Virus record (IMG/VR): IMGVR_UViG_3300003663_000001
Length of the DNA: 38,819 nucleotides
DNA from: a virus
Direction: 5' to 3' (one strand)
Under the pieces are notes generated by a model, which did no database searches, was not told where the DNA came from, and was given only the letters and a program-made list of their open reading frames with translations. The position numbers and the translations under genes are program-made. This document shows, piece by piece, positions 4,309 through 16,480 of the stretch; the first letter of the stretch is position 1, and each line of letters opens with the position of its first letter.

Positions 4309-7300
4309 CTACGGCATTTCTTCATGTACTTGCTCCAGGGCATCCTTGGCCTGTCGGTAGAACTTCTCAAGAGCCCGGTTTTTCTGCTCATAGTAGCTTT
4401 CTATGGCTGCTTCTTTCTGCTCGGCGGTCATGTTGTCGTTGTACTTGTACGAGGCAATGATTTCCTGCTGATCCTCGAAAGCACTGTCGATCTGGTTAAA
4501 CGCGCCATTTAGACCAATTAGGATCTGGTTTACCTTGTCCCCGGCAAACTCCGGCGCCTTGGACGGATCACGGATGGCTTCACGCTGCAGCATGTTGAAC
4601 GTCTGCTGTGCGGCGGCGGCCTTCACTTTCAGATCCCAATACCCTTCTGTCCATTTTGTACGGTATGGAACCTTCTGGCCAACAAACTGGTGCGTCATGT
4701 AGTCAATTGGCGTACCCCGGTTGAACGGGCGCGGCCCCCAATCGTCTTGTTTCCACAGGGCGGCTTCTGACGCATCGGCAATAATCATCTCCACGTAGCG
4801 TAGGAAGCCCTTGCTGTAGTGTTCTGCCACCAGCGGTGATACCCCCAGGTATTCACCCAGCTTGCGGTACATGATGGGCGTGCGGTCGGTGTACTGGTAT
4901 TCAGCCGGGATATCCATCATGTAATGCGGCACCACGGGCGCACCGGTGAACTTCTCATTGCGCTGAATCTCGATCCAGGGCTGAAGGATGCCGGGATAAT
5001 CCCCGATACCAACGGTGTTCACCAGGGCCCACGCCAGGTGTTCGGATGCTTCTTTGCCGTCCCTGTTCTTCACATAGTCCAGGCCTACTTCCGGCAACGT
5101 GGCAAAGATATGGCCCAGGTCATACGGGCGAGGGATCTTGAACGGCGTATCGGCGCCGGGAATGAAGATCCACCAGAAGCGGGCTTTCTGGTCTGGCGTC
5201 AGCTGCTGGTACCGCTCATCATCCTGGTTCAGCAACCACAAGATCACACTCATCATGGTCAGCACGCTGCCTTTCATCAGGAACACTGCTTTTTTGTCAG
5301 TCAAGCGTGCCAGGTTGGTGCCTTTCATTTCCCCGCGGATCTCGGAAAATTCCCGGGCGGCCTTGTCCAGCCCCTGAATGCCGGCGTTCATAAACGGCAC
5401 GGTGCGTAGGAACTTGGCCCACAGCTCATTGCGGCCCATCTTGCTAAAGTCGGTAGCGATCTCCCGGGCCTCCCAGGCAGCTTCCATTGGTGACGTGCCA
5501 GACTTCACCCCCAGCTCATAATCACCAATGCGCGAACCGTACTCGAAAGCACTGGTGAAGCGATCCCAGCCGGCCAGGAACTTGGCGGCCGCATCCCATC
5601 CGGATTCACTCGGCAGGTCCAGCCGGCGCCGGTCGCGGGTTTCCTGTGTCCGGGCCTCGATCCTGGTGCCGTATCCGCCACCTTGCAGCCTGAAGTCCTT
5701 GTAGGTCTGCGTGTTGAACATGAAGTGAGCCATGCCCCGGAGCGTGCTGTATACCGGGATAAACCGGTTTCGGCTCATAATCGCAGCACTCACGGTATCC
5801 CTGACGGCGTTTGGCCCCAGGAACTGAAACATGCTGGTAACCGTCCGGGTCTGCAGGTTCTTCACTCGATACAGGGCATTCATCACGGCGCCACTGCGCA
5901 GCCCTCTCAGGCCGGTGAGCATGTCCACCAGCAACGGCTCATGCACTTCAAAGTACACCCTCTTGCCATTCACCACGGCGCTGTCCACATAGGTTTCCGT
6001 GGTCTGCGGCTTGTGGCCAAAGGTCCAGAAGCTCAGCAATGCCGGGTTGGCCTCCAGGGCGGCGGCGATATCTTCCACGTCCGTCACCTGTGCGTCCGGA
6101 TCTCCGGCCATAATCATGCCGTCCTTGCTCACGGTTAGCCCCATTTCCGCCATTGCCTCGGCCATCTTGGCGGCCATCTGTGCCTGCTCAACCTGCACCT
6201 TCTTGCTGTCCGGTGCGATCTTCGCGGCAAACAGTGCGCCGTCCTGGCTGTTCATAATGTCGTTGTAGAGCGTTGCCTTGGCACGGGCAATGATAGCGGC
6301 CCGGATATTGGCCTGAAGCCCGTCCACAATGTTCTCGGCAATGTCCCGGGTATTCTGCGTGCCACCAGTCAGGCGCTTGCCGATTTCACTCACGCCCATT
6401 TCGCGGCCGTCCTCGATGCGCTCAATCACCCGGTGGAACGGCACGTAGTTCTGGTTCATCTTCTTGAAGGCTTTGCGCTGGCTCTCGTCAATCAGCCCCA
6501 TCTGCACGTAGAAATCCAGCATCCGGTCATTGAACTTCTGGAACTCGGAAAAGATCTGCGGGAATTCAGGATGCTTCTGCCCCAGGGCAAGGCCGGCGTC
6601 GATCTCCTGGTCGGTGAACAGGTTTTCCCGGCCCTGCTTCTTCAGCTCCTGGCCACGGCGGGCCTTGAAATACTCCATCAGATCATCGAACCGGCGCCAC
6701 CCGTGTTTGGTGGCCGGCTTGAACACTTCTTCCAGCCCCTTGCCGCTGAACTCAAAGTAGCCATCATCGGTCAGGCGCGGCGTGCCATCCTGAATCACGG
6801 CCTCATGCACGGATTCAGCTCCGTTCACCATCTGGAATTGCTTATACGGGCTCACGGTGGCCTCGCCAACTTCGCCTTTCAGCGTGCGCTCCACCACCTT
6901 GGCGGCATGGATCTTGTCAATTACCTGCTGGCGGTACCGCTCCAACGGATAGCTGTTCTGGTATTCCAGGATCTGCTGGCTGGCGGTCAGCTCACGGCCA
7001 GACTTGGCCCGCAATTGCGCCCGTGGCCCCTGCAGATACCAGCGGTGCATTTCGTCCTGCAGGCGCTTCATCTTGCGATCCAGCACGGCGTCATCTTTCA
7101 TCACCTGTTCAAACCGCTGCGTGAACAGTGGCGCCCTGGCCTTGGCCTCGCTGTAGTTGGTCAGCCACAGGCGGACAAACTCGGCAAAACCTTCCTTCGC
7201 CTTCAGGTTCTTCTTGCTGGTGTAGCTCAACGCCTCCACTTCCTTGCGGTATTTGCTGTCCTTGTACTCCCGGGTAAACCGCTTGTTGTAGCGGTAGTGC

Positions 7301-10300
7301 ATATCCAGGTAGTGCGCCATTTCGTGCGCCATCACCTCTACATCGTCGTAGTTCTTCACCCGCACTTCGCTGTTGTTGCTGCGGTAGAAGCCCAGCTTTG
7401 ACTTGCCCCGGACCTTGCCGAAGTAGATACGTTTGCCGATCAGATCCTGCAGCATGAACCGGATACCCTCACGGCGGGTCGGCTTTTCCTCCGGCTTCAG
7501 GGTCACGGTACGGTCACCCAAGGTAAAGCGGCCATTGTCCGGGCGCCGTGGCACGCCTGTCATGCTGTACGGCGGCTGCCACTGCGGCATAGGCACATCG
7601 GCACCCATATCGCTCATCATGGCGCTGGTGGCGTCCTGGTTGGTGGCGTCCTGGTCCTTCTTGGGCTGTAGCTCGGCAATCACCAACTGGTGGCGGGCCT
7701 TCACCTTGGACAATTCCTCGGCCTGGTCCCACTCCTGCACTTGTTCTTCCAGCTTCGGCAGATCCCTTTCGGCCTGCTTCACCCGGGCGGCCTGCTGTTT
7801 GGCCTCGGCGTCGATGGCTGAAATGGTATTGGTCACCCGGCGTGCCAGGCCGGTGGCGTCTGCACTGCCGATATCCTTGATATCCACCTGGTGCTCCATG
7901 GCGCCGTCCAAGGTCAGCACAAACCGTGTGCCAGTGACGTTATCCAGGGTCATGCTAAAGCCGGCATAGCTGCCGATAGCCTTGGATTCGGTGCCGGCGT
8001 CTGACATTTTCGCGGCTTCCGCCAGGATCTCCTGGCCGGCGTCCTTGTGCTTGTCGAACGTCTGGCCATTCACGGTGATAGTGAAGTCCTTGGGCGCGGC
8101 CTTAGCCTTCTTCACGTCCTGCGCGTACTTCAGCAAGCGATCCTTGCCCCGCTCCACAATGGATTTTTCGCGGCGGATGGCGTCACGGATCCGGAACTGT
8201 TCGCGGTCGTGTTCTTCCTCGGCCTGTTCCAGCTTTCGCAGTTTCTGGCGAAGGTCCATTTCTTCCAGGATCAGCGGATTGCCACTGGATGCCGCTTTCA
8301 TCTCGGCGGCGTTGGCCGATTCTGCCCCCAAGTCCTCGATCTCGCGCTGTTTGGTGTTGCCCTTGCGCACCTGCTCGATAAACCGGGCCTTGGTTTCAAT
8401 GGTCTGCCACATGCGGCTGTCCAGCGTCTGCTTGGTGGCGTAGCGGTTGATCTCGATTTCAAAGCCATCCGGGTCACGGTCGTACAGCTCGTTACCCTGG
8501 CGGATAATCCGGCCCTCCCGCTGTTCCAGGTCTGACGGCCTCCACGGTGCGTCCATGTGGTGGAGCCCCACCAGGCGGGTCTGCACGTTCATGCCGGCGC
8601 CCATCTTGGCGGTGGAGCCCATCAGCACGCGAACACGGCCTGTGCGCACCTTGGCGAACAACTCAGCCTTCTGTAGCTCGGTGTTGGCGTCATGGATATA
8701 GGCCACTTCCGATTCCGGAATGCCCAGGTTAATCAGCTTCTGGCGCAAGTCGTCATACACACTGAAATCACCATCCAGGGCTTCCAGCTCGTCCGGGCTC
8801 ATTCGGTCCAGCTGTTCGCTGGCGGCCTCGTCGCCATCTTCGGCACGCTGGATCAGGTCACGAATGCGGTTGGCTTCCTGCGCCTTGGCGCCCTTGGGCG
8901 TACTTAGGTCGATGAATACCAGCTGCGCACCCTTGTCGTCGCTCCACTGGTCGTACAGGGCTTTAATCCGGCTGGCGGCCTCATTGATCTTGCTGTCCGG
9001 GTTGTCGGCGTACAGTGCCGGGTCGATCAGGCGCATATCCAGGGCGGCCTTCCGGGCATCGCTCATAATCTTGAGCATGTTGTCGGCGCCCTTTTCAGGC
9101 TTCTTCGGCAGGTGTTCAGCACGCCATACCAGTGAGCCCTTCGGATAAACCTCGTTGCCCCGCTCATCCTGCACGGGCACACCAATGTAGTCGGCCTGGT
9201 CCTCGCTGCGCTCCACTACAATGTTGTTGGGCTTCCCGCCTTTGATCTTCGGTACCGGCAGGCGCTTGCCCTGTGCCGCCAGCTGCTTGTTGATATCGTC
9301 GCGGTTTACCACGTCACCAAAGGTCAGGTACCGCTGCATCAGCTCGGGCAGGTTCACGAACTTGCTGAAACGGCTATTCAGCTTGTAGCTTCCGGTTGGT
9401 GACAGCTCCCAATCGGTGACCACTTCCCCGTACATGCTGGCCCAGGCGTCGAAGTGTGCAATGCCCTGGTCCTGCAGGGTCTGGTAATCCAGGAACCGCT
9501 GCATGGTATACATTTCGGCCATGGTGTTGCTGATTGGCGTGCCGGTGGCGAAAACCACGTTGTTGCCGCCAGTGCGCTCCAGGATGGATTGCACCTTCAT
9601 AAACATATCGGCGGCCTTCTGGCTGCCCTGCGGGTTACCCAGGCCGGCAACGCGGGTCATGCTGGTGGCAAATCCCAGGTTCTTGAACTCATGGGCTTCA
9701 TCCAGGAACAGGGCATCCACACCCAATTCACCAAATGTCAGGTTGTCGTCCTTGTTCTCGGCATCGAACAGGCGCTTGAGCCTTTCCTGCAGGCGCTCTT
9801 TTTGCTTCTCGATCTGTTTGATGGAGCGTGCGCCCTTGCCCTCCTGGTCGCGGATAGTGGAAATAGCGGTGTCGATATCCCGGATCTGCTGGTTGATGAA
9901 CCGCTCTTGGAACTCGGCATCCATTTCGACCTTGCCAAACGAGGAATGCGCCACAATCACGGCGTCCCAATCGCCGGTGGCAATCCTGGCGAACAGGCGC
10001 TTGCGGTTGCCCTTCTCAAAGTCTTTTTTGGTGGCGGCCAGAATGTTGGCGTTCGGGTACAGCTTGGTGAAGTCCTCGGCCCACTGGCCCACAAGGTGAT
10101 TCGGTACCACAAACATGGGCTTCTTGGCGCGGCCTGTCCGGCGTAGCTCCATGGCCCCGGCAATCATAGTGAAGGTTTTGCCGGCGCCCACAACGTGATC
10201 CAGCAACGTGGTACCGCTCTGCACAATCCGCCAGGCGGCGTTGGCCTGGTGCGGCCGCAACTTCACAATGTCGTCACCCACCTTGCCCGGGAACGTCAGG

Positions 10301-13300
10301 TGTGAACCGTCATACTCCCGCACCCGGTCGGTGTTGAAGGTATCGTTATAGAGCCTGGTCAGGCGAACACGGCGGGCATCGTCTTTCCAGATCCAGCGGC
10401 GGAACTCGGCCTTTACTCGCTGGATCTTCTCGTTGGCGGCGTTGGTGGCGGATTCGTTGATAACGGTGGTGCTTTCGTCCACTCGATCACGAATCACAAT
10501 GCTCTTGTCGTTTGCCGCGGCGGTCAGGATATCGCTCACCTGCGCACGGTCGGTACCGTATTGGCTTTCAGCGGCGGTGGTCGGGCTGCCTTTGATGTTC
10601 CACTTGGCCATTACCGGGTTGTAGGTTGCCTTGCCGTTGGCGTTACCCAGGATATGGTCGGCAAACTCGGTCACCACTTCCGGTGGCAACCAGTGGGCGC
10701 CAGGCTTCACCCGGATATCGACGGCTTCAATGTCCTCCGGCTGCACGTCCTTCAGGGCCTGCACGTTGCGCTCAAAGCGCGGCATATCCTTGGCCATGCG
10801 CTCGGCCATTGCCAGCTTCTGCTTCACGTTGCCAGACAGGTATTCGTCGCGGGATTCCCAATTATTGGGCGTACTCTCGAAAACCAGGTCGCCAAGCTCG
10901 GCCACAATGGCGCTTTCCGTCTTGCCGTACAGCTGGCTCATGTACTCCATATCCACCCGGCCCTTTTCGGACAGGCTGGCGGTCAGTGCGTCCTTGGCAG
11001 TGGTGGCCTTTTCCGGTGCCTTGTAAGGCTGCTGTGTCCGGGTCCGGAAGATGGCGGCCTTCTCGGCACTCGGCTTGCGCGGGGTTTCCCCGGTGCGCTT
11101 CGCTACGGTCGGGCTGATCCCCTTGTCAAAGGATTCTTCCAGGGCGGCCAGCTGCGGCCAGGTTGGATCATCCCGGAACAGTCGCTTGTTGGCATCCAGG
11201 TTGATGGGTCCGTTCTTCTTTACGAACTGGTCATACACCCGGTTGAGTCGGTCACGCAGTGCGCCCAGGGCCTCATCCTTCACGTTCTCGGTCAGCTGCG
11301 CCTTACGCAAATCCGCGAACACGTCACGGACCTTAATCAGACCACGCACCCGTTCTTCGGCCTTTTTGCTCGGCATTTCCACGGGCTCAGACCGGGCCTG
11401 CCCCATTTCGCTTTCCAGTCGGATGCTGATCTGGTCGCCATCCAGGAACATGCTGCCCACCTTCACGTTCTCCACGCTGGTCGGCAGGGTTACTTCCTCG
11501 GATACCGGCTCAGTGGTGGCGGCGTCCATAAAGTCTTTCGGCAGGCTGGCCATGGCTTCCTGCAGTAGCGCGTTGGTGTCCTGCCCCTGCCTTGCCACCA
11601 GGGCGGGCTCATTCGGCCCGTACATCGAACCGTAGGCGCCCCATTCACCCAGCATCATTCCCGGATTGCGGTCGAAGTATTCATTCAAGGGAACGTCGAT
11701 ACCATTGGCATCCTTCACGGTGTTGACCACGGACCAGGATTCACCAGACGGCTGCTCACCTTCCCGGCGCTTACGCAGAAAAATGATATCGGTGGTGACT
11801 TCGGTACCGGCGTTCTTCAGGAATGCGTTGTTGGGCAGTCTCACGGCGCCCAGCAAATCGGCACGCTCGGCCAGGTAATCACGCGCCATCTTGTTGTTGC
11901 CGTCCATCAGGCGGCTCGATACCACCATGGCCAGCACGCCATTGGGCTTCAGTCCGGCCATAGACTTGGCGAAGAAGTAATTGTGAATGCTCATTTTCGA
12001 CAAGGCTTTACGCTTGCCGTCATACAGCTTCTGGTTACCAAACGGCGGGTTGCCAATGGCCAGGTCAAAATAGCCATCCGGCATGTTGAACTCTTGGAAT
12101 CCCATCGGTGCCTGAATGTTGGCACCAGGGTACAGCTTCTGTGCAATGCCCCCGGTGATATGGTCCAGCTCCACCCCGGCAATGCTGCTCTTGGATCTCA
12201 CGCCACCCGGCATGAATCCCAGGAAGTTGCCGGTACCAACGGACGGCTCCAGCACGCGGCCACCCTGAAAGCCCATGTTCTTCACGGCCTTCCAGATCTC
12301 GGTGACGATCTCCGGGCTGGTGTAGTGGGCATCCTGCGTACTGCGGCGGGCTGCATCGTATTCCGCTTCGGTCAATGCTTCCTGCAGCTGCTTGGCTTCC
12401 TTCTCCCAGCCTTTGGTTATCTTGCCACGGTCACCTACAAACGCTTGAGGCAGGCCACCCCAGCCCACATACCCGGCCAGGATCTGTTGTTCCTCCGGTG
12501 TGGCCTGGCGGCCTTCCTCGTTCAGTTGCTTCAGGGTCTGGATAGCTTTCAGGTTGTTCTTGAACTTGGTTTTGGCTCCGCCAGCACCAATGTTCATTTC
12601 CGGCGTCAGTGTGAAGAACTTGGCCGGCCTGTCGCCTGCTGGCTCTGATCTCTGCGTTGTTGCGCCTTTTGGCGTTGGCGCCTTCTTTGCCGCTTTTTCT
12701 GTCGCATCTACGCTTCCCTCAGATCCTCGGGTTGCGGGCTGTCCGCTTCCAGCGTCCTGCTCATCGTCTGCAGGGCGTCGCTCAGTATCGCGGGCCCGTT
12801 GCCCTCCGGCTTGTCGTTCTCCGGTTCCCCCGGTGGAAACAGGTACCTCTCCCTCGCCATCTGAAACGCCTCGTCCGGCTGGTACCCCGCTTCCTCCAGC
12901 TGACTCACCTGCTGGTACGTCTGTTCCGCTGCCTGTTTCAGCATCGGTTCCAGTGTCCCCTGCTTCTTCAGGCTCTGATACAGCTTCGGCCTGTTCTCCT
13001 GCCAGTGGCTTCTGGCCTGGTTGATCCAGTTCTGTAGGTTCATCTTTCGTTACCCTTTCGGTGGCGGATTTGATTTGTTCAGCTTCCGGAACAAAATAAA
13101 GGCTTCCATCCTTTCCGCTGACAATTACGCCGTCGTGGTCGCCATCTTCCATTCGATCAATGATCTTGTCAGTATTTTGGTCGAAATAGTTCGTCTCATT
13201 GGAGTCAACACTAATAACCAAAGGGTTCTGCATGGACAGGTATGCTTCAATAACGCGAGGCGAGTCGCCGGCCCTCTGGTTCCCGTCATTATCTTCCGGC

Positions 13301-15588
13301 TCAGTGTAAAACTCCGCATCTTCCCGGTCAGAATGGAAGTGAGCACCCCTCAATCCTTCTTCGGTGTACGGGGTGTTCTCGCCGGTTCGATCCATGTCGA
13401 ACGTGTCGAAGTCCTGACGGGTGCCGTGATAAACCACCAACGGATCGCCGTTTTCGTCCACCACTTTGCTGTCGCCAAACCAACGGTCAAAGTCATTTAC
13501 CGGCTCTGATCGCTCGGCAGTATCACCCTGAGCACCTTGGTTCCCGGTGGCAGGCTGGCCAGAAACCCCGGTGTCACCTCCGGACCTTGTGACGCCTGGC
13601 GGCGTTTCGCCCCGGCCGGTCAGATCATCCTCAAGCAACGCCTGGCGCATTTCATCCTGTGTCATTTCATCGACACGGCGGCGGGTTTGGGTGTCTTGCC
13701 TGCGCTCTACGTTGGCTGTTTCCTGATAAGTGCGCTTCAGCCTGGCAATAGACTGCCGGCCAATTTCCGGCTTCATACTACGGTGTGTTTCCAGCGGCAC
13801 GCCTTCCGCCACTTTCTCGATACGGTTACCCTGTCGCGGGCTGAACTCCAGCGGCTTTCCTGCCGGCGTTGTCATAATGGTGTAGGCGCCGTTTGGCGTT
13901 ACTTCTGCGTACACGTCCAGGGTTTCGGGCGCACCCTCTGCCGCGTCAGGTTCCGGCTCCGTTGCCGGTGCATCAAGGTCCGACAGCCGCTGGCGGGCTT
14001 CCTCGGTCGGCATATCCCACAACTGCGCATCATCCACACCCGCTTCCCGCAACTGGTTACGTTCAAACGGTGTCAGATCATCAGCGGCCTGCCCGGTTTC
14101 CTGTTCTGCTTCTGGCTCAGGCTCTGGCCGGTCGGATTCCTCTGGCGGTTCCTCCACGGCTGGCGGCCTGCTGGCGATCAGCGGCACGTTGACGTTACCG
14201 GGCATTTCACCCTGGCGCGGCGCGATATCAATGCCTCGTTCCTTCAGCTTTTGCGCTACCAGGTCACCCATGGTCGGGCGCTCCGGTGCCCGTACCTGTT
14301 CCATCTGTGCCTGTGAAGGGTCCAGGGCTGCGGTGGCGGCCTGGTCTGCCGGCCCAAATTCGGCGGCTCTGGCCTGGCGGTTGATCTCTCGTGCAACCTG
14401 GCGCTCTGGTCCACCCTTGGCAGCTGCGCTGGCGGTACCGGCTGCGGTGCCATAGGTTCCGCCAGCAACGAAACCAGCAAGGCCTCGGTCAGCGGCTTCG
14501 GAAAAACTCATCGCGGCATCGGTACCAAAACGCTCACCAACGTATTCGACCACACCTTCCTGGAACAGCTCGGTTGTGGCTTCTTTCGCGCCAGCCCCGG
14601 CGCCACCAGCTGCTACCCGGGCAAGTCCATTTCTCATGGCCAGTTTGCCAACGGATTCAGCCCCGGCCTTTGTGATCCCCTTCGCACCATAACGCTCCAA
14701 TATGGCAGAGCCTAGGGCGAACGGCGCGGCTTGCAGCACGTCAGTCAGTTCAGCCTTTTCCTTGCCCTTGTTCTTCGCTCGGACCTCACCCATTTCACCA
14801 GAACGGGCAATCACATATCCGGGCAGTGACATGGTAACCGCCACCATATCCGGAATGGATTTTATGCCCTGCTCAAAACCGTACTGCAGAACTTCACCCC
14901 AGGCAGATCCAGACAGCGGCCCGTTCTGGCTGAATTCAAACTTCACCTGCTCCCAGGTGTTATCCGGCACATAACCGGCGTCTAGGTTCTTCAGGTTTTC
15001 GGCGGCAACGTCCAGGGCCTCAGTGCCACCTTGCGCCTTATACTCGGCGTATTCCTTGCCATTCAGGTATTTCGGTACCAGTCCGTCATCCCATACAAAG
15101 CCTCCCATGGAAAAGGCTTCTTCCCCGGCCTCAGCCCCGGCATTGATGGCGGTCAGTACGCCACCACCAAGATCACCTACACGCTCGGCGGCACCACGGG
15201 CGGCGTTGTAGTCCTGCACTTCTTCCCATGATCCAGTGGCGCCCCTGGTTGGCTCTGGTGGTAGTTCATAGCTTCCGGTGGCCCCATTGGGTCCGGATTG
15301 CTCGATCTGTGCAGGCTGTGTCTGCTCAGGCTTAATAGGCGGGAATGTACGTCCGGCGTTAGAGTTATTCGGAGTGCCTGCCTCCGCTGAATCCTTCGTC
15401 CTGTCGCTACCAGAAAACCATTGAAACCAGCTATCTCCTTCAGGCTCTTTGGCTTGCTCCTGGTTGTCGCCATATAGCTCGTTGTGCCAGCTGGCCAGCT
15501 CTCTTGCACCCTCGGTATCTCCTGCCAGGTGCGCCTTCTCAAGCGCGTTTAGTAACTGATCCTTGGAAGGCTGCTGGTTCTCGCTCAT
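4309..15588 (-). CDS. Giant multidomain (polyvalent, DarB-like) virion-module protein, 3759 aa: ART-like + N6-adenine MTase + SF2 helicase + HExxH metallopeptidase + long uncharacterised C-terminus
   Basis: Uninterrupted ORF. Start placed at the ATG at 15588 ('MSENQQ', GAGG upstream, 7 nt after the upstream stop) rather than at 15657. Domain motifs are listed as separate features. It lies between the internal-protein candidates and the tailspike. Confidence 0.85.
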   Translation of the reverse strand: MSENQQPSKDQLLNALEKAHLAGDTEGARELASWHNELYGDNQEQAKEPEGDSWFQWFSGSDRTKDSAEAGTPNNSNAGRTFPPIKPEQTQPAQIEQSGPNGATGSYELPPEPTRGATGSWEEVQDYNAARGAAERVGDLGGGVLTAINAGAEAGEEAFSMGGFVWDDGLVPKYLNGKEYAEYKAQGGTEALDVAAENLKNLDAGYVPDNTWEQVKFEFSQNGPLSGSAWGEVLQYGFEQGIKSIPDMVAVTMSLPGYVIARSGEMGEVRAKNKGKEKAELTDVLQAAPFALGSAILERYGAKGITKAGAESVGKLAMRNGLARVAAGGAGAGAKEATTELFQEGVVEYVGERFGTDAAMSFSEAADRGLAGFVAGGTYGTAAGTASAAAKGGPERQVAREINRQARAAEFGPADQAATAALDPSQAQMEQVRAPERPTMGDLVAQKLKERGIDIAPRQGEMPGNVNVPLIASRPPAVEEPPEESDRPEPEPEAEQETGQAADDLTPFERNQLREAGVDDAQLWDMPTEEARQRLSDLDAPATEPEPDAAEGAPETLDVYAEVTPNGAYTIMTTPAGKPLEFSPRQGNRIEKVAEGVPLETHRSMKPEIGRQSIARLKRTYQETANVERRQDTQTRRRVDEMTQDEMRQALLEDDLTGRGETPPGVTRSGGDTGVSGQPATGNQGAQGDTAERSEPVNDFDRWFGDSKVVDENGDPLVVYHGTRQDFDTFDMDRTGENTPYTEEGLRGAHFHSDREDAEFYTEPEDNDGNQRAGDSPRVIEAYLSMQNPLVISVDSNETNYFDQNTDKIIDRMEDGDHDGVIVSGKDGSLYFVPEAEQIKSATERVTKDEPTELDQPGQKPLAGEQAEAVSEPEEAGDTGTDAETGSGTDVPAGESAGGSGVPAGRGVSDGEGEVPVSTGGTGERQAGGQRARDTERRPADDEQDAGSGQPATRGSEGSVDATEKAAKKAPTPKGATTQRSEPAGDRPAKFFTLTPEMNIGAGGAKTKFKNNLKAIQTLKQLNEEGRQATPEEQQILAGYVGWGGLPQAFVGDRGKITKGWEKEAKQLQEALTEAEYDAARRSTQDAHYTSPEIVTEIWKAVKNMGFQGGRVLEPSVGTGNFLGFMPGGVRSKSSIAGVELDHITGGIAQKLYPGANIQAPMGFQEFNMPDGYFDLAIGNPPFGNQKLYDGKRKALSKMSIHNYFFAKSMAGLKPNGVLAMVVSSRLMDGNNKMARDYLAERADLLGAVRLPNNAFLKNAGTEVTTDIIFLRKRREGEQPSGESWSVVNTVKDANGIDVPLNEYFDRNPGMMLGEWGAYGSMYGPNEPALVARQGQDTNALLQEAMASLPKDFMDAATTEPVSEEVTLPTSVENVKVGSMFLDGDQISIRLESEMGQARSEPVEMPSKKAEERVRGLIKVRDVFADLRKAQLTENVKDEALGALRDRLNRVYDQFVKKNGPINLDANKRLFRDDPTWPQLAALEESFDKGISPTVAKRTGETPRKPSAEKAAIFRTRTQQPYKAPEKATTAKDALTASLSEKGRVDMEYMSQLYGKTESAIVAELGDLVFESTPNNWESRDEYLSGNVKQKLAMAERMAKDMPRFERNVQALKDVQPEDIEAVDIRVKPGAHWLPPEVVTEFADHILGNANGKATYNPVMAKWNIKGSPTTAAESQYGTDRAQVSDILTAAANDKSIVIRDRVDESTTVINESATNAANEKIQRVKAEFRRWIWKDDARRVRLTRLYNDTFNTDRVREYDGSHLTFPGKVGDDIVKLRPHQANAAWRIVQSGTTLLDHVVGAGKTFTMIAGAMELRRTGRAKKPMFVVPNHLVGQWAEDFTKLYPNANILAATKKDFEKGNRKRLFARIATGDWDAVIVAHSSFGKVEMDAEFQERFINQQIRDIDTAISTIRDQEGKGARSIKQIEKQKERLQERLKRLFDAENKDDNLTFGELGVDALFLDEAHEFKNLGFATSMTRVAGLGNPQGSQKAADMFMKVQSILERTGGNNVVFATGTPISNTMAEMYTMQRFLDYQTLQDQGIAHFDAWASMYGEVVTDWELSPTGSYKLNSRFSKFVNLPELMQRYLTFGDVVNRDDINKQLAAQGKRLPVPKIKGGKPNNIVVERSEDQADYIGVPVQDERGNEVYPKGSLVWRAEHLPKKPEKGADNMLKIMSDARKAALDMRLIDPALYADNPDSKINEAASRIKALYDQWSDDKGAQLVFIDLSTPKGAKAQEANRIRDLIQRAEDGDEAASEQLDRMSPDELEALDGDFSVYDDLRQKLINLGIPESEVAYIHDANTELQKAELFAKVRTGRVRVLMGSTAKMGAGMNVQTRLVGLHHMDAPWRPSDLEQREGRIIRQGNELYDRDPDGFEIEINRYATKQTLDSRMWQTIETKARFIEQVRKGNTKQREIEDLGAESANAAEMKAASSGNPLILEEMDLRQKLRKLEQAEEEHDREQFRIRDAIRREKSIVERGKDRLLKYAQDVKKAKAAPKDFTITVNGQTFDKHKDAGQEILAEAAKMSDAGTESKAIGSYAGFSMTLDNVTGTRFVLTLDGAMEHQVDIKDIGSADATGLARRVTNTISAIDAEAKQQAARVKQAERDLPKLEEQVQEWDQAEELSKVKARHQLVIAELQPKKDQDATNQDATSAMMSDMGADVPMPQWQPPYSMTGVPRRPDNGRFTLGDRTVTLKPEEKPTRREGIRFMLQDLIGKRIYFGKVRGKSKLGFYRSNNSEVRVKNYDDVEVMAHEMAHYLDMHYRYNKRFTREYKDSKYRKEVEALSYTSKKNLKAKEGFAEFVRLWLTNYSEAKARAPLFTQRFEQVMKDDAVLDRKMKRLQDEMHRWYLQGPRAQLRAKSGRELTASQQILEYQNSYPLERYRQQVIDKIHAAKVVERTLKGEVGEATVSPYKQFQMVNGAESVHEAVIQDGTPRLTDDGYFEFSGKGLEEVFKPATKHGWRRFDDLMEYFKARRGQELKKQGRENLFTDQEIDAGLALGQKHPEFPQIFSEFQKFNDRMLDFYVQMGLIDESQRKAFKKMNQNYVPFHRVIERIEDGREMGVSEIGKRLTGGTQNTRDIAENIVDGLQANIRAAIIARAKATLYNDIMNSQDGALFAAKIAPDSKKVQVEQAQMAAKMAEAMAEMGLTVSKDGMIMAGDPDAQVTDVEDIAAALEANPALLSFWTFGHKPQTTETYVDSAVVNGKRVYFEVHEPLLVDMLTGLRGLRSGAVMNALYRVKNLQTRTVTSMFQFLGPNAVRDTVSAAIMSRNRFIPVYSTLRGMAHFMFNTQTYKDFRLQGGGYGTRIEARTQETRDRRRLDLPSESGWDAAAKFLAGWDRFTSAFEYGSRIGDYELGVKSGTSPMEAAWEAREIATDFSKMGRNELWAKFLRTVPFMNAGIQGLDKAAREFSEIRGEMKGTNLARLTDKKAVFLMKGSVLTMMSVILWLLNQDDERYQQLTPDQKARFWWIFIPGADTPFKIPRPYDLGHIFATLPEVGLDYVKNRDGKEASEHLAWALVNTVGIGDYPGILQPWIEIQRNEKFTGAPVVPHYMMDIPAEYQYTDRTPIMYRKLGEYLGVSPLVAEHYSKGFLRYVEMIIADASEAALWKQDDWGPRPFNRGTPIDYMTHQFVGQKVPYRTKWTEGYWDLKVKAAAAQQTFNMLQREAIRDPSKAPEFAGDKVNQILIGLNGAFNQIDSAFEDQQEIIASYKYNDNMTAEQKEAAIESYYEQKNRALEKFYRQAKDALEQVHEEMP
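7100..7450 (-). other. Zincin-like metallopeptidase motif region of the giant protein
   Basis: 'VEVMAHEMAHYLDMH', with HEMAH at 7312-7326. The domain limits are approximate. Confidence 0.5.
8480..10262 (-). other. Superfamily-2 (SNF2/DEAD-like) helicase domain of the giant protein
   Basis: Walker A 'VGAGKTFT' (10174-10188), motif II 'LDEAHEFKN' (DEAH at 9691-9702) and motif VI 'QREGRIIRQGN' (8491-8523). Confidence 0.8.
11640..12625 (-). other. N6-adenine DNA methyltransferase domain of the giant protein
   Basis: SAM motif I 'VLEPSVGTGNFLGF' (12223-12249) and catalytic motif IV 'IGNPPFG' (12037-12051). It is preceded by 'LAGYVGWGGLPQAF', typical of methylase-helicase fusion proteins. Confidence 0.8.
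12708..13043 (-). CDS. Candidate overlapping ORF (111 aa) in the +1 frame of the giant gene, confined to its low-complexity linker
   Basis: ATG at 13043, preceded by AAGGG 9 nt upstream and by an in-frame TAA 9 nt upstream; TAG stop at 12708. The translation looks helical and globular ('MNLQNWINQARSHWQENRPKLYQSLKKQGTLEPMLKQAAEQTYQQVSQLEEAGYQPDEAFQMARERYLFPP'). Hand-counted GC3 is 92/111 here, against 43/111 for the giant frame over the same bases. Confidence 0.35.
   Translation of the reverse strand: MNLQNWINQARSHWQENRPKLYQSLKKQGTLEPMLKQAAEQTYQQVSQLEEAGYQPDEAFQMARERYLFPPGEPENDKPEGNGPAILSDALQTMSRTLEADSPQPEDLREA
13066..13500 (-). other. ADP-ribosyltransferase-like domain of the polyvalent-protein type (tentative)
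   Basis: 'FDRWFGDSKVVDENGDPLVVYHGTRQDFDTFD...GAHFHSDREDAEFYT...VIEAYLSMQNPLVI' matches my recollection of the 'WFGDSKVVDxxGxPLVVYHGT' signature of ART-like modules in large phage and plasmid proteins. Confidence 0.4.
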
Positions 15589-15595
15589 TGCTACC

Positions 15596-16480
15596 TCACT
15601 GGCTATACATTTTGAGTAGTTCGTTGCGGTCCATGGTACCGCCCTGACCAAGATCACGCACGCTGATTCCCAGCTGGCGGGCGGCTTGTGTTACCGCTGC
15701 TGAACGTGTTTCAGCCTGGCCTTGTGAGTATAGCTGTGCGGCACGGGTTGTAATGGCCTGCACCTTGGAACGGTTTTCCGGGTTCAGATTTTGCAGGTTG
15801 CCCTGCTGGTCGAAGATCCCACCCAGCAATTCGGCTGCCTGGCGGAACATCAGGCTTTCATCGGATGATTTGAAGTCGCTACCAGATCCGCCAGCCTGCG
15901 CTTTCAGCAAGGCATTGCTGGTGGTGGACTCGATCATCTGACCATCTTTGTAAAGCCGGTCCTCGCCACCAAAGGTGATCTTCTCCGGGTTTTTCAGCAT
16001 GTCGTCCAGCTCACGGGCCCGCGCAAGCCCCATCTGCACAAAGTTGGGGTCATATTCTTCGGGCATGTTCGCGGCGACCTCCGGCGCCAGGTTCTGGCGG
16101 GCACGCTGGTACCGCTGCGCCTGTTCCTCTGGCGTGCCACCCTGCAGGATAAAGGTGCTCACCCGGCCCAGGGTTTCCACATTTTGTTCCATCTGTTTGC
16201 GTTGGCGCTCGTCCATGTTCTTGAACGCTTCCTGCACTTGCGTAGCTTCTTCCGGCGCGAACGCAATCAGCTCACGCTCTGCCTGCTTAGCATCCGGGCC
16301 ACCTGCCGCCATCCGGGAACGCAAGCTGTTCAGTGTCTGGCCACGCTGGCGGGCTTGATCGCGGTCCTCTTTCTTCCAGTCCAGTGCCAGGGCATTGGCC
16401 TTGCGCTGCTGGCGGGAGCCCTTTACCGCTTCCGTGGTGCGGTAGACTTCACCCATATCAATGCCAAACTGATTAGCCAT
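15596..16480 (-). CDS. Hypothetical virion-module protein (internal/ejection protein candidate), 294 aa
   Basis: ORF track. The assignment rests on its position directly upstream of the giant gene. The sequence is helical and Gln/Ala/Arg-rich, and I recognise no motif. Confidence 0.5.
   Translation of the reverse strand: MANQFGIDMGEVYRTTEAVKGSRQQRKANALALDWKKEDRDQARQRGQTLNSLRSRMAAGGPDAKQAERELIAFAPEEATQVQEAFKNMDERQRKQMEQNVETLGRVSTFILQGGTPEEQAQRYQRARQNLAPEVAANMPEEYDPNFVQMGLARARELDDMLKNPEKITFGGEDRLYKDGQMIESTTSNALLKAQAGGSGSDFKSSDESLMFRQAAELLGGIFDQQGNLQNLNPENRSKVQAITTRAAQLYSQGQAETRSAAVTQAARQLGISVRDLGQGGTMDRNELLKMYSQ

Follow-up and report, generated by a model that had tools for sequence, protein, structure and literature searches.

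An unannotated small gene nested out of frame in the linker of a giant DarB-like phage gene

The giant gene and the frame nested in it

The window analysed here is the whole 38,819-nucleotide (nt) stretch of the IMG/VR virus record IMGVR_UViG_3300003663_000001, and its minus strand carries a giant open reading frame (ORF) inside which a second, complete ORF of 111 codons, here termed E, lies out of frame on that strand (positions 12708-13043; Table 1). The giant product matches the DarB-like antirestriction family phrog_10089 (E-value = 0) and unites ART-PolyVal, Eco57I, ResIII/SNF2/Helicase_C and LPD38 domains in one polypeptide; by its domains it is a typical member of the polyvalent or DarB-like proteins (founding paper: Iyer et al. 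2017, PMC5512222; DarB of phage P1). The GTG from which this ORF is counted lies within the last part of the gene upstream (15596-16480), and the true start is probably the ATG at 15588 (Met24, MSENQQ...), just past the stop of that gene. E is offset from the giant ORF by 2614 nt, that is, by 1 modulo 3, which places it in the +1 register relative to the giant frame (hereafter G).

The small ORF with its ATG and TAG had been noticed in a first-pass annotation made from the sequence alone, which also recorded a TAA and an AAGGG ahead of the ATG and placed the whole in a linker between an ART-like and a methyltransferase domain. All of this stands, with the Pfam ART match ending at about 13054 and homology to the methyltransferase block beginning at about amino acid (aa) 1009 (position ~12633). 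The pooled composition of the linker is G 18%, A 15%, R 12%, E 10%, D 8%, P 8% and S 8%, with F, W, Y, I, L, M and C at about 3%, and in the giant frame it is probably disordered. For the E product, AlphaFold2 predicts a helical core with a pLDDT (predicted local distance difference test score) of 84-91 across aa 1-70, and ten residues (W6, H13, W14, P19, G29, L31, G53, E58, A59 and R64) are invariant in alignment A1. The C-terminal helix is predicted at a pLDDT of about 44-52 and is weakly conserved, with a pattern A.Q.M..R that recurs among relatives.

The two frames also differ in composition. Third-position G+C (GC3) stands at 0.83 for E and at 0.387 for the giant frame over the same bases, against 0.71-0.76 in the adjoining methyltransferase part, in agreement with the earlier hand counts of 83% and 39%. 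Two readings attached to those counts have to be given up, however. The giant frame does not lose its codon bias just in the linker: GC3 is 0.50-0.65 across the N-terminal ~1000 aa (12634-15657) and 0.37-0.50 in the ART-PolyVal domain from ~13300 onward, while the rest of the gene stands at 0.73-0.85. Nor is the codon usage of E simply "genome-typical", its high GC3 being largely an avoidance of T at third positions, as described below. The low GC3 of the N-terminal region, together with its being mostly unrelated to that of VvAW1 and close relatives, suggests recently exchanged modules from a source of lower G+C content. No promoter-like site was found within 12400-13700, and neither an Rfam match nor a tRNA was found in the window.

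Table 1. Coordinates of the giant gene, the nested ORF E and associated features in the window.
Feature	Coordinates	Strand	Description
Giant ORF	4309..15657	-	3782 codons from GTG; DarB-like polyvalent protein; Pfam and PHROG
ART-PolyVal domain, aa 734-868	13054..13458	-	Pfam E-value = 1.1e-21; ends just before the E start; GC3 0.37-0.5
Giant-frame linker, aa 869-1008	12634..13053	-	Low-complexity; includes the bases of E, read in the -1 register relative to E
Methyltransferase-helicase block	4309..12633	-	N6-adenine methyltransferase (Eco57I-like), SNF2/ResIII helicase, LPD38; co-inherited with E
E ORF	12708..13043	-	ATG, 111 codons, TAG; +1 frame of the giant gene; ORF list and homologues
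E core, aa 1-72	12828..13043	-	Four predicted helices, aa 3-64; AlphaFold2 and alignment A1
E C-terminal amphipathic helix, aa 85-96	12756..12791	-	Predicted; follows an acidic low-confidence stretch
Shine-Dalgarno-like AAGGG	13053..13057	-	Ends 9 nt before the E ATG
E-frame TAA	13050..13052	-	6 nt between TAA and ATG; shuts the E frame upstream

Homologues of E and conservation of the overlap

Homology and structure searches with the product, which the first-pass annotation had proposed, gave a match to phrog_938 (E-value = 1.8e-25), located at the C-terminal end of that 2185-position profile, and the helical core described above. A word-indexed search of 5.8 billion proteins returned 24 homologues, all of 78-192 aa, and 1.84 billion cluster representatives, searched exhaustively with a profile, yielded 908 clusters at 50% identity (E-value <= 1e-3); the best 150 of these 908 hits are 55-376 aa long, mostly about 100-110 aa, and include no giant protein. 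On sequence grounds these relatives identify E as a member of a widespread family of about 100 aa, and as a real gene rather than a chance ORF. Standalone relatives occur in bacterial mobile elements with no overlapping giant gene, and in one of them (L086) the -1 frame contains four stops. A possible relation is to the Pfam family TnpV (PF14198), which 15 of 56 diverse members of the E family match (E-value <= 0.01; best E-value = 1e-6) and which the E of the window matches over aa 3-52 with 18.7 bits (E-value = 0.0017), under the 27-bit gathering threshold; this indicates a distant relationship only. TnpV, a small transposon-encoded protein, resembles E in being helical, about 110 aa long and encoded by mobile elements, but the resemblance yields no mechanism.

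The first-pass annotation had further suggested a likeness of the peptide to short N-terminal modules found next to methylase, helicase or antirestriction genes on plasmids and integrative and conjugative elements (ICEs). Part of this survives, in that standalone relatives do lie in integrative and other mobile elements. The idea as a whole is weak because a tblastn search of a plasmid collection with E gave a single match, in a 59-kb Brucella record; it lies there within a giant gene of the PLxRFG type and is similar to phage POI1126. Moreover, no match examined has the E module fused in frame as the N-terminus of a methylase or a helicase.

At the nucleotide level, a megablast search of positions 12000-14000 against phages found no DNA relatives. 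At the protein level, tblastn of E against 50,697 phage records matched 21 records representing 11 isolated phages: VvAW1, PBC5, Atu_ph08, LASTA/SJM3, SopranoGao, POI1126, Pavtok, Stean, PEp14, Itty13 and Mwe-JY07. In these phages E begins with an ATG (MNL[QN]NW...), spans 102-132 codons and ends at a stop of its own; its register is identical in all 11, and it is +1 to the open giant frame in 10, the exception being PBC5, which is discussed below. The same two-frame arrangement is present in 48 of the 48 IMG/VR loci found via E, and among 15 loci in bacterial genomes (prophages or a phage-like plasmid) the giant frame is open well to both sides of E in 13 and truncated in two.

Because loci found by means of E are biased towards its presence, a second sample was drawn with the N-terminal region of the methyltransferase alone (alignment A3), from which 80 of 275 relatives were kept. 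Seventy-eight of these could be judged, one of the remaining two having only 122 nt of upstream sequence (L165) and the other (L087, the same contig as L020) having been missed by the scan. A small +1 ORF lies just upstream of the methyltransferase in all 78. The E profile matches it in 67, always in the +1 frame, with 64 strong matches that include a start codon and three weak or partial ones (L145, L153 and L118, the last being SopranoGao and a parsing artefact). The remaining 11 loci carry divergent +1 ORFs of 85-100 codons, termed E2 and E3, that end 10-50 nt before the methyltransferase block. In the six E2 loci tested, dN/dS (the ratio of nonsynonymous to synonymous substitution rates) is 0.1-0.27 in the +1 frame against 1.4-8.8 in G, which indicates purifying selection on the +1 ORF, and a profile-profile comparison of E2 with E (hhalign) gives a probability of 13% and an E-value of 2e-3.

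The breadth of these samples bears on the most mundane account of the overlap, namely that indels introduced in assembly or sequencing have displaced a segment that truly belongs to the giant frame, or have joined two genes into one giant ORF. A frame change does lie beside E in PBC5, which is an old deposit. The two-frame arrangement recurs, however, in genomes of isolates and bacteria and in viral and metagenome contigs, more than 100 in number and each assembled independently, and E is bounded on both sides by stops in its own frame, so that we regard an artefact of this kind as having almost no chance of being the explanation. One locus (L015) was considered as an unfused state, with a small gene followed by a giant gene, and was set aside, as it shows the same overlap split by the gene caller.

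E is an unannotated gene within a gene: at the position of the match, no feature for E is given in any of the 21 GenBank/RefSeq phage records. The match falls under the annotated giant gene in 19 records, while the two Itty13 records have a "hypothetical protein" on the wrong strand there. Literature searches and the papers on these phages yielded no description of a gene embedded in one of the DarB-like or PLxRFG type, and the words TnpV, frameshift and overlapping are absent from the founding paper on polyvalent proteins (PMC5512222).

Selection on the two frames

Selection was compared between frames by pairwise Nei-Gojobori estimates of dN/dS in 25 pairs, values that are semi-quantitative given that the frames overlap. 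Over the E core, dN/dS is 0-0.5 in the E frame, 0.85-5.6 in G and 0.45-3.1 in the third frame, which is closed in places across the region; in the methyltransferase just downstream, G returns to 0.01-0.10. Broadly, the values amount to about 0.1-0.3 for the E frame and about 1-5 for G across the bases they share. The tail of E gives 0.14-0.79. Purifying selection on the E frame is seen in every clade compared, at dS values (0.5-1.7) that are saturating, and variability concentrates at the third codon position of E, where 4 of 71 columns are invariant against 17 and 24 at first and second positions. The comparison that the first-pass annotation had suggested, between a +1 frame kept open under purifying selection and a freely varying giant linker, thus comes out in favour of E.

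These results weigh on two linked proposals. The first-pass annotation had offered, as one possibility, that E is the remnant of a domain once in frame; a related reading has E as a decaying fossil, unexpressed and open by chance in a GC-rich, T-poor stretch. A linker rich in Gly, Glu, Asp and Ala does enrich G at the third position of the +1 frame, and the giant gene holds other alternative-frame ORFs of 73-121 codons. The remnant option is nonetheless rejected because purifying selection is acting on the E frame today in all lineages compared; moreover, the start codon, Shine-Dalgarno motif and stop of E are conserved in the 64 loci sampled without reference to it, and the other alternative-frame ORFs are without homologues. 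We consider decay very improbable. Three of those other ORFs (15177-15542, 13125-13346 and 14256-14480) gave no match; the first, on the minus strand, runs for 121 codons from a TTG in the +1 frame, within the N-terminal part of the giant gene. It lacks a PHROG match and is regarded as having arisen by chance where first codon positions are rich in G.

Although its amino acids change freely, the giant frame remains open. When the synonymous codons of E were resampled with the codon usage of each genome at 13 loci, 1.1-7.8 stops were expected in G; none is observed, G being open in 13 of 13. The probability of an open G under this resampling is 0.018 for the window, <0.0002 for VvAW1, 0.002-0.007 for Klebsiella phages and 0.01-0.32 for the others. 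The means is visible in the codons themselves: T never occurs at the third position of an E codon that precedes a codon beginning with AA, AG or GA (0 of 30-43 such sites per genome), and in VvAW1 the frequency of T at third positions is 0.06 in the embedded gene and 0.32 in a reference stretch of the giant gene. The contrast in GC3 between E and G exists largely because T is avoided at E third positions, which keeps G free of stops; the same avoidance leaves few T-initial codons in G and may in this way contribute to a hydrophilic, aromatic-poor linker. Both frames are kept by selection, and stop avoidance is the sole clear constraint on G.

A separate peculiarity concerns arginine. All six Arg codons of E are AGR, as the first-pass annotation had pointed out, whereas elsewhere in the giant gene 9 of 144 are; enrichment of AGA/AGG among the Arg codons of E is found in most of the loci examined (the window and 18 others), and the E stretch is purine-rich (0.60-0.65 vs 0.51-0.56). 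Additional selection on linker composition or on the mRNA may underlie both features.

Start signals, origin and possible role of E

The 48 IMG/VR loci retain a start codon for E in 47 cases (ATG in 43, GTG in 4), with a GGAG-type Shine-Dalgarno motif 7-10 nt upstream. The mean energy of the duplex with the anti-Shine-Dalgarno sequence over the 48 loci is -6.8 kcal/mol, compared with -2.5 kcal/mol at other ATGs of these loci (Mann-Whitney p = 2e-25). In the window and in LASTA, SopranoGao, Pavtok, Stean, PEp14 and VvAW1, a stop in the E frame lies 6-15 nt upstream of the ATG. The simplest expression of E compatible with these signals would be internal initiation on the giant mRNA.

The rival reading of the same region is recoding, which the first-pass annotation had listed among its possibilities: ribosomes in the giant frame would shift +1 near the E ATG to give an N-terminal region joined to E, or ribosomes started at E would shift -1 near its end to give E joined to the methyltransferase-helicase block. 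Points in its favour are the gp22 protein of PBC5, in which an N-terminal region and E are joined in frame; three integrative-element loci (L012-L014) in which the giant frame lacks a Met and extends no more than 145 nt ahead of E; and the ability of internal Shine-Dalgarno sequences to stimulate frameshifting, known from prfB and dnaX. The sequence features expected of a shift site were not found, however. There is hardly any room for a +1 shift into E because the E-frame stop sits so close to the ATG, with just 6 nt between them in the window and five phages; the bases between that stop and the ATG are not conserved, and no conserved shift-prone motif was found in these 6-15 nt. No X_XXY_YYZ heptamer occurs in the E frame of 27 loci, and RNA folding of 81 nt around the E start is unremarkable (z = -0.10), with no stable structure. 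What is conserved, an ATG or GTG with a Shine-Dalgarno motif at a spacing typical of initiation, is the segment's own apparatus for starting. As for the supporting loci, the L012 assembly is error-prone, with neighbouring genes fragmented too, and the PBC5 fusion is accounted for by a single indel. Recoding therefore appears improbable to us.

PBC5 (NC_003324, a Sinorhizobium phage) was also considered as an ancestral in-frame state. Relative to Atu_ph08 it differs by one frame change ~45 nt upstream of the E ATG (L002, ~2955-2958), and because this single change suffices for the fusion, PBC5 is taken as derived or as a sequencing error rather than ancestral; the change could be an old error in the sequence or a real split of the gene. 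It divides the giant gene and leaves 1.6 kb of methyltransferase-coding sequence unannotated in the record. The in-frame gp22 fusion could also explain why E matches the C-terminal end of the phrog_938 profile.

How the two frames came together is suggested by the distribution of homology along the giant gene. The window is syntenic with VvAW1, the major capsid proteins being 82% and the portal proteins 77% identical; homology between the giant proteins covers aa 872-3781, beginning at the E ATG, while the first 870 aa are mostly unrelated and the ART-PolyVal domain has no counterpart at the VvAW1 locus. Within the clade of the window itself, the 600 aa from the E start onward are collinear at 64-97.5% identity and the preceding 400 aa either are rearranged or show no relationship; the ~150 aa directly before E, with most of the ART domain, have no match in the closest relative (L020). 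Since homology starts at the E ATG and the N-terminal regions are mostly unrelated, E and the methyltransferase-helicase block form a conserved unit, and these comparisons point to an exchange of N-terminal modules at a junction that falls on the ribosome-binding site of E.

We therefore think it likely that 12708-13043 is dual-coding, an older small gene E that is read through by the giant gene, for which the alternative frame serves as a linker. In the mechanism that we propose, E would be an old independent gene with a Shine-Dalgarno motif and an ATG of its own, from which it is translated within the giant mRNA; its product, of about 105 aa, would consist of a core of four helices followed by an acidic spacer and a helix at the C-terminus. 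Ribosomes started ~2.6 kb upstream would read on through the same bases in G and produce a Gly/Ala/Arg/Glu/Asp-rich linker connecting a variable N-terminal region, here ending in the ART domain, to the methyltransferase-helicase block. The arrangement would have arisen when variable N-terminal modules were fused to the unit of E and the methyltransferase-helicase block by reading E in the -1 register, and selection would now keep the amino acids of E while choosing its synonymous codons such that G meets no stop. An overprinted gene tolerated in a disordered linker was among the possibilities raised in the first-pass annotation, and that much is supported; the polarity it implied is reversed, in that the distribution of homologues and constraint marks E as the old, constrained frame and the linker as the derived one.

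Several observations count against this reading or limit it. The Shine-Dalgarno motif of E in the window is weak, at -4.5 kcal/mol and the 27th percentile of control ATGs. In PBC5, E lies in frame with an N-terminal part as the C-terminus of gp22, and a few database proteins of 300-376 aa hold the E module in frame with other sequence; from the PBC5 fusion and these proteins together it follows that E is able to exist as a domain. The enrichment of AGR codons is not accounted for by stop avoidance. A Foldseek search against the PDB gave zero matches at E-value <= 0.001 and a sequence profile search of the PDB gave nothing, no NCBIfam or PADLOC family includes E, and a structure search of BFVD gave PBC5 orf33 as the sole match. 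The loci counted above share ancestry, such that counts like 48 of 48 and 78 of 78 are not independent events. Finally, the maintenance of both frames and the start signals are observed, and it is from these that we infer the translation of E.

Out-of-frame embedded genes have precedents in phages, including Rz1 inside Rz of lambda and, in phiX174, gene E inside gene D. As in those cases, a larger gene encloses a small but complete one that has a start of its own, occupies the +1 frame and shares strand and mRNA with it, and both products are maintained. There, however, the embedded gene is generally considered the newer frame, whereas here it is the older and widespread one, the frame of the host gene is derived, unconstrained and confined to a linker, and the host gene is ~11 kb long. 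In Bacillus subtilis, comS encodes a small regulator out of frame within srfAB, a giant non-ribosomal peptide synthetase gene, and it too is a short ORF that has a ribosome-binding site to itself and shares its transcript with the giant multi-domain gene around it; yet ComS has 46 aa, is lineage-restricted and lies over a folded enzymatic domain, whereas E has ~105 aa, belongs to a family of at least 908 clusters and lies over an inter-domain linker at a mosaic junction.

In classical overprinting the new frame encodes a new protein (reviewed in PMC8227390), and the present arrangement differs in that the new frame is a mere tether and the embedded gene the old one. It is a clean case of dual coding in which the direction of overprinting can be read, with a small folded protein in the old frame and a linker in the new, and it shows one route by which giant multi-domain proteins can be put together while a gene lying in between is retained. 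Such a gene, here hidden in one of the largest phage genes known, tends to be missed when routine annotation settles on the long ORF.

Because E is co-inherited with the DarB-like block, we guess, with low confidence, that it is a separate partner of the methyltransferase-helicase module, perhaps a chaperone, an inhibitor or a packaging adaptor in the producer cell, and that packaging and ejection of the giant protein may be why it has stayed a polypeptide of its own. Work on Bcep22 reportedly found the giant protein of this phage group in virions. A broader proposal, which we hold to be doubtful though possible, is that fusion through overprinting built the giant virion proteins of this phage group and that E survives as their dedicated, separately translated partner, the overlap securing joint inheritance and expression; under that proposal E could act inside the producer cell as a chaperone or as an inhibitor, or else serve as a packaging adaptor by analogy with the DarA-type helpers of P1 DarB. 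Packaging and regulation of antirestriction proteins are poorly understood outside phage P1, and with its co-inheritance and with a junction at its ribosome-binding site E is a candidate cofactor of such a protein. The culturable carriers VvAW1, LASTA, SopranoGao, PEp14, Pavtok and Atu_ph08 make these ideas directly testable.

Other observations concern the wider family and its genomic settings. E copies, whether standalone or remnant, occur on bacterial contigs in mobile-element or defence-island settings (L017-L019, L080, L083 and L084), among neighbours that include type I restriction-modification systems, DarT-Macro, YjiT/YjiV-like proteins, helix-turn-helix (HTH) regulators, DUF1376, RepB/ParB and resolvases; in L017-L019 the E module is joined to a hydrophobic C-terminal tail (192 aa) and the giant frame is broken. 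In four of the 300-376-aa proteins (P0041, P0053, P0064 and P0140) the E module is in frame with a recurrent domain without a Pfam match, which sits before or after it and carries the motif ..DPE....G..LA.YH[IV]E.G.R.F.DYA..M..DLG..I.PYL..WY..; it may represent a further partner domain, or may simply reflect the way in which the genes were called. The E2 and E3 variants lie at ~2150-2490 in each of the loci L146-L166, which are IMG/VR loci with more distant giant genes; E2 reads ..EIANRWMLGWPKRVKALI..HLARHEIAELYGL and E3 reads ..GYQLHEAK..REYIL. In the Pseudomonas phage Itty13 (L009, NC_070969), the RefSeq coding sequences gp01-gp03 run on the strand opposite to an ORF of >6.3 kb with PBECR1, Eco57I methyltransferase and ResIII domains, and the giant gene of this phage appears to have been annotated on the wrong strand.

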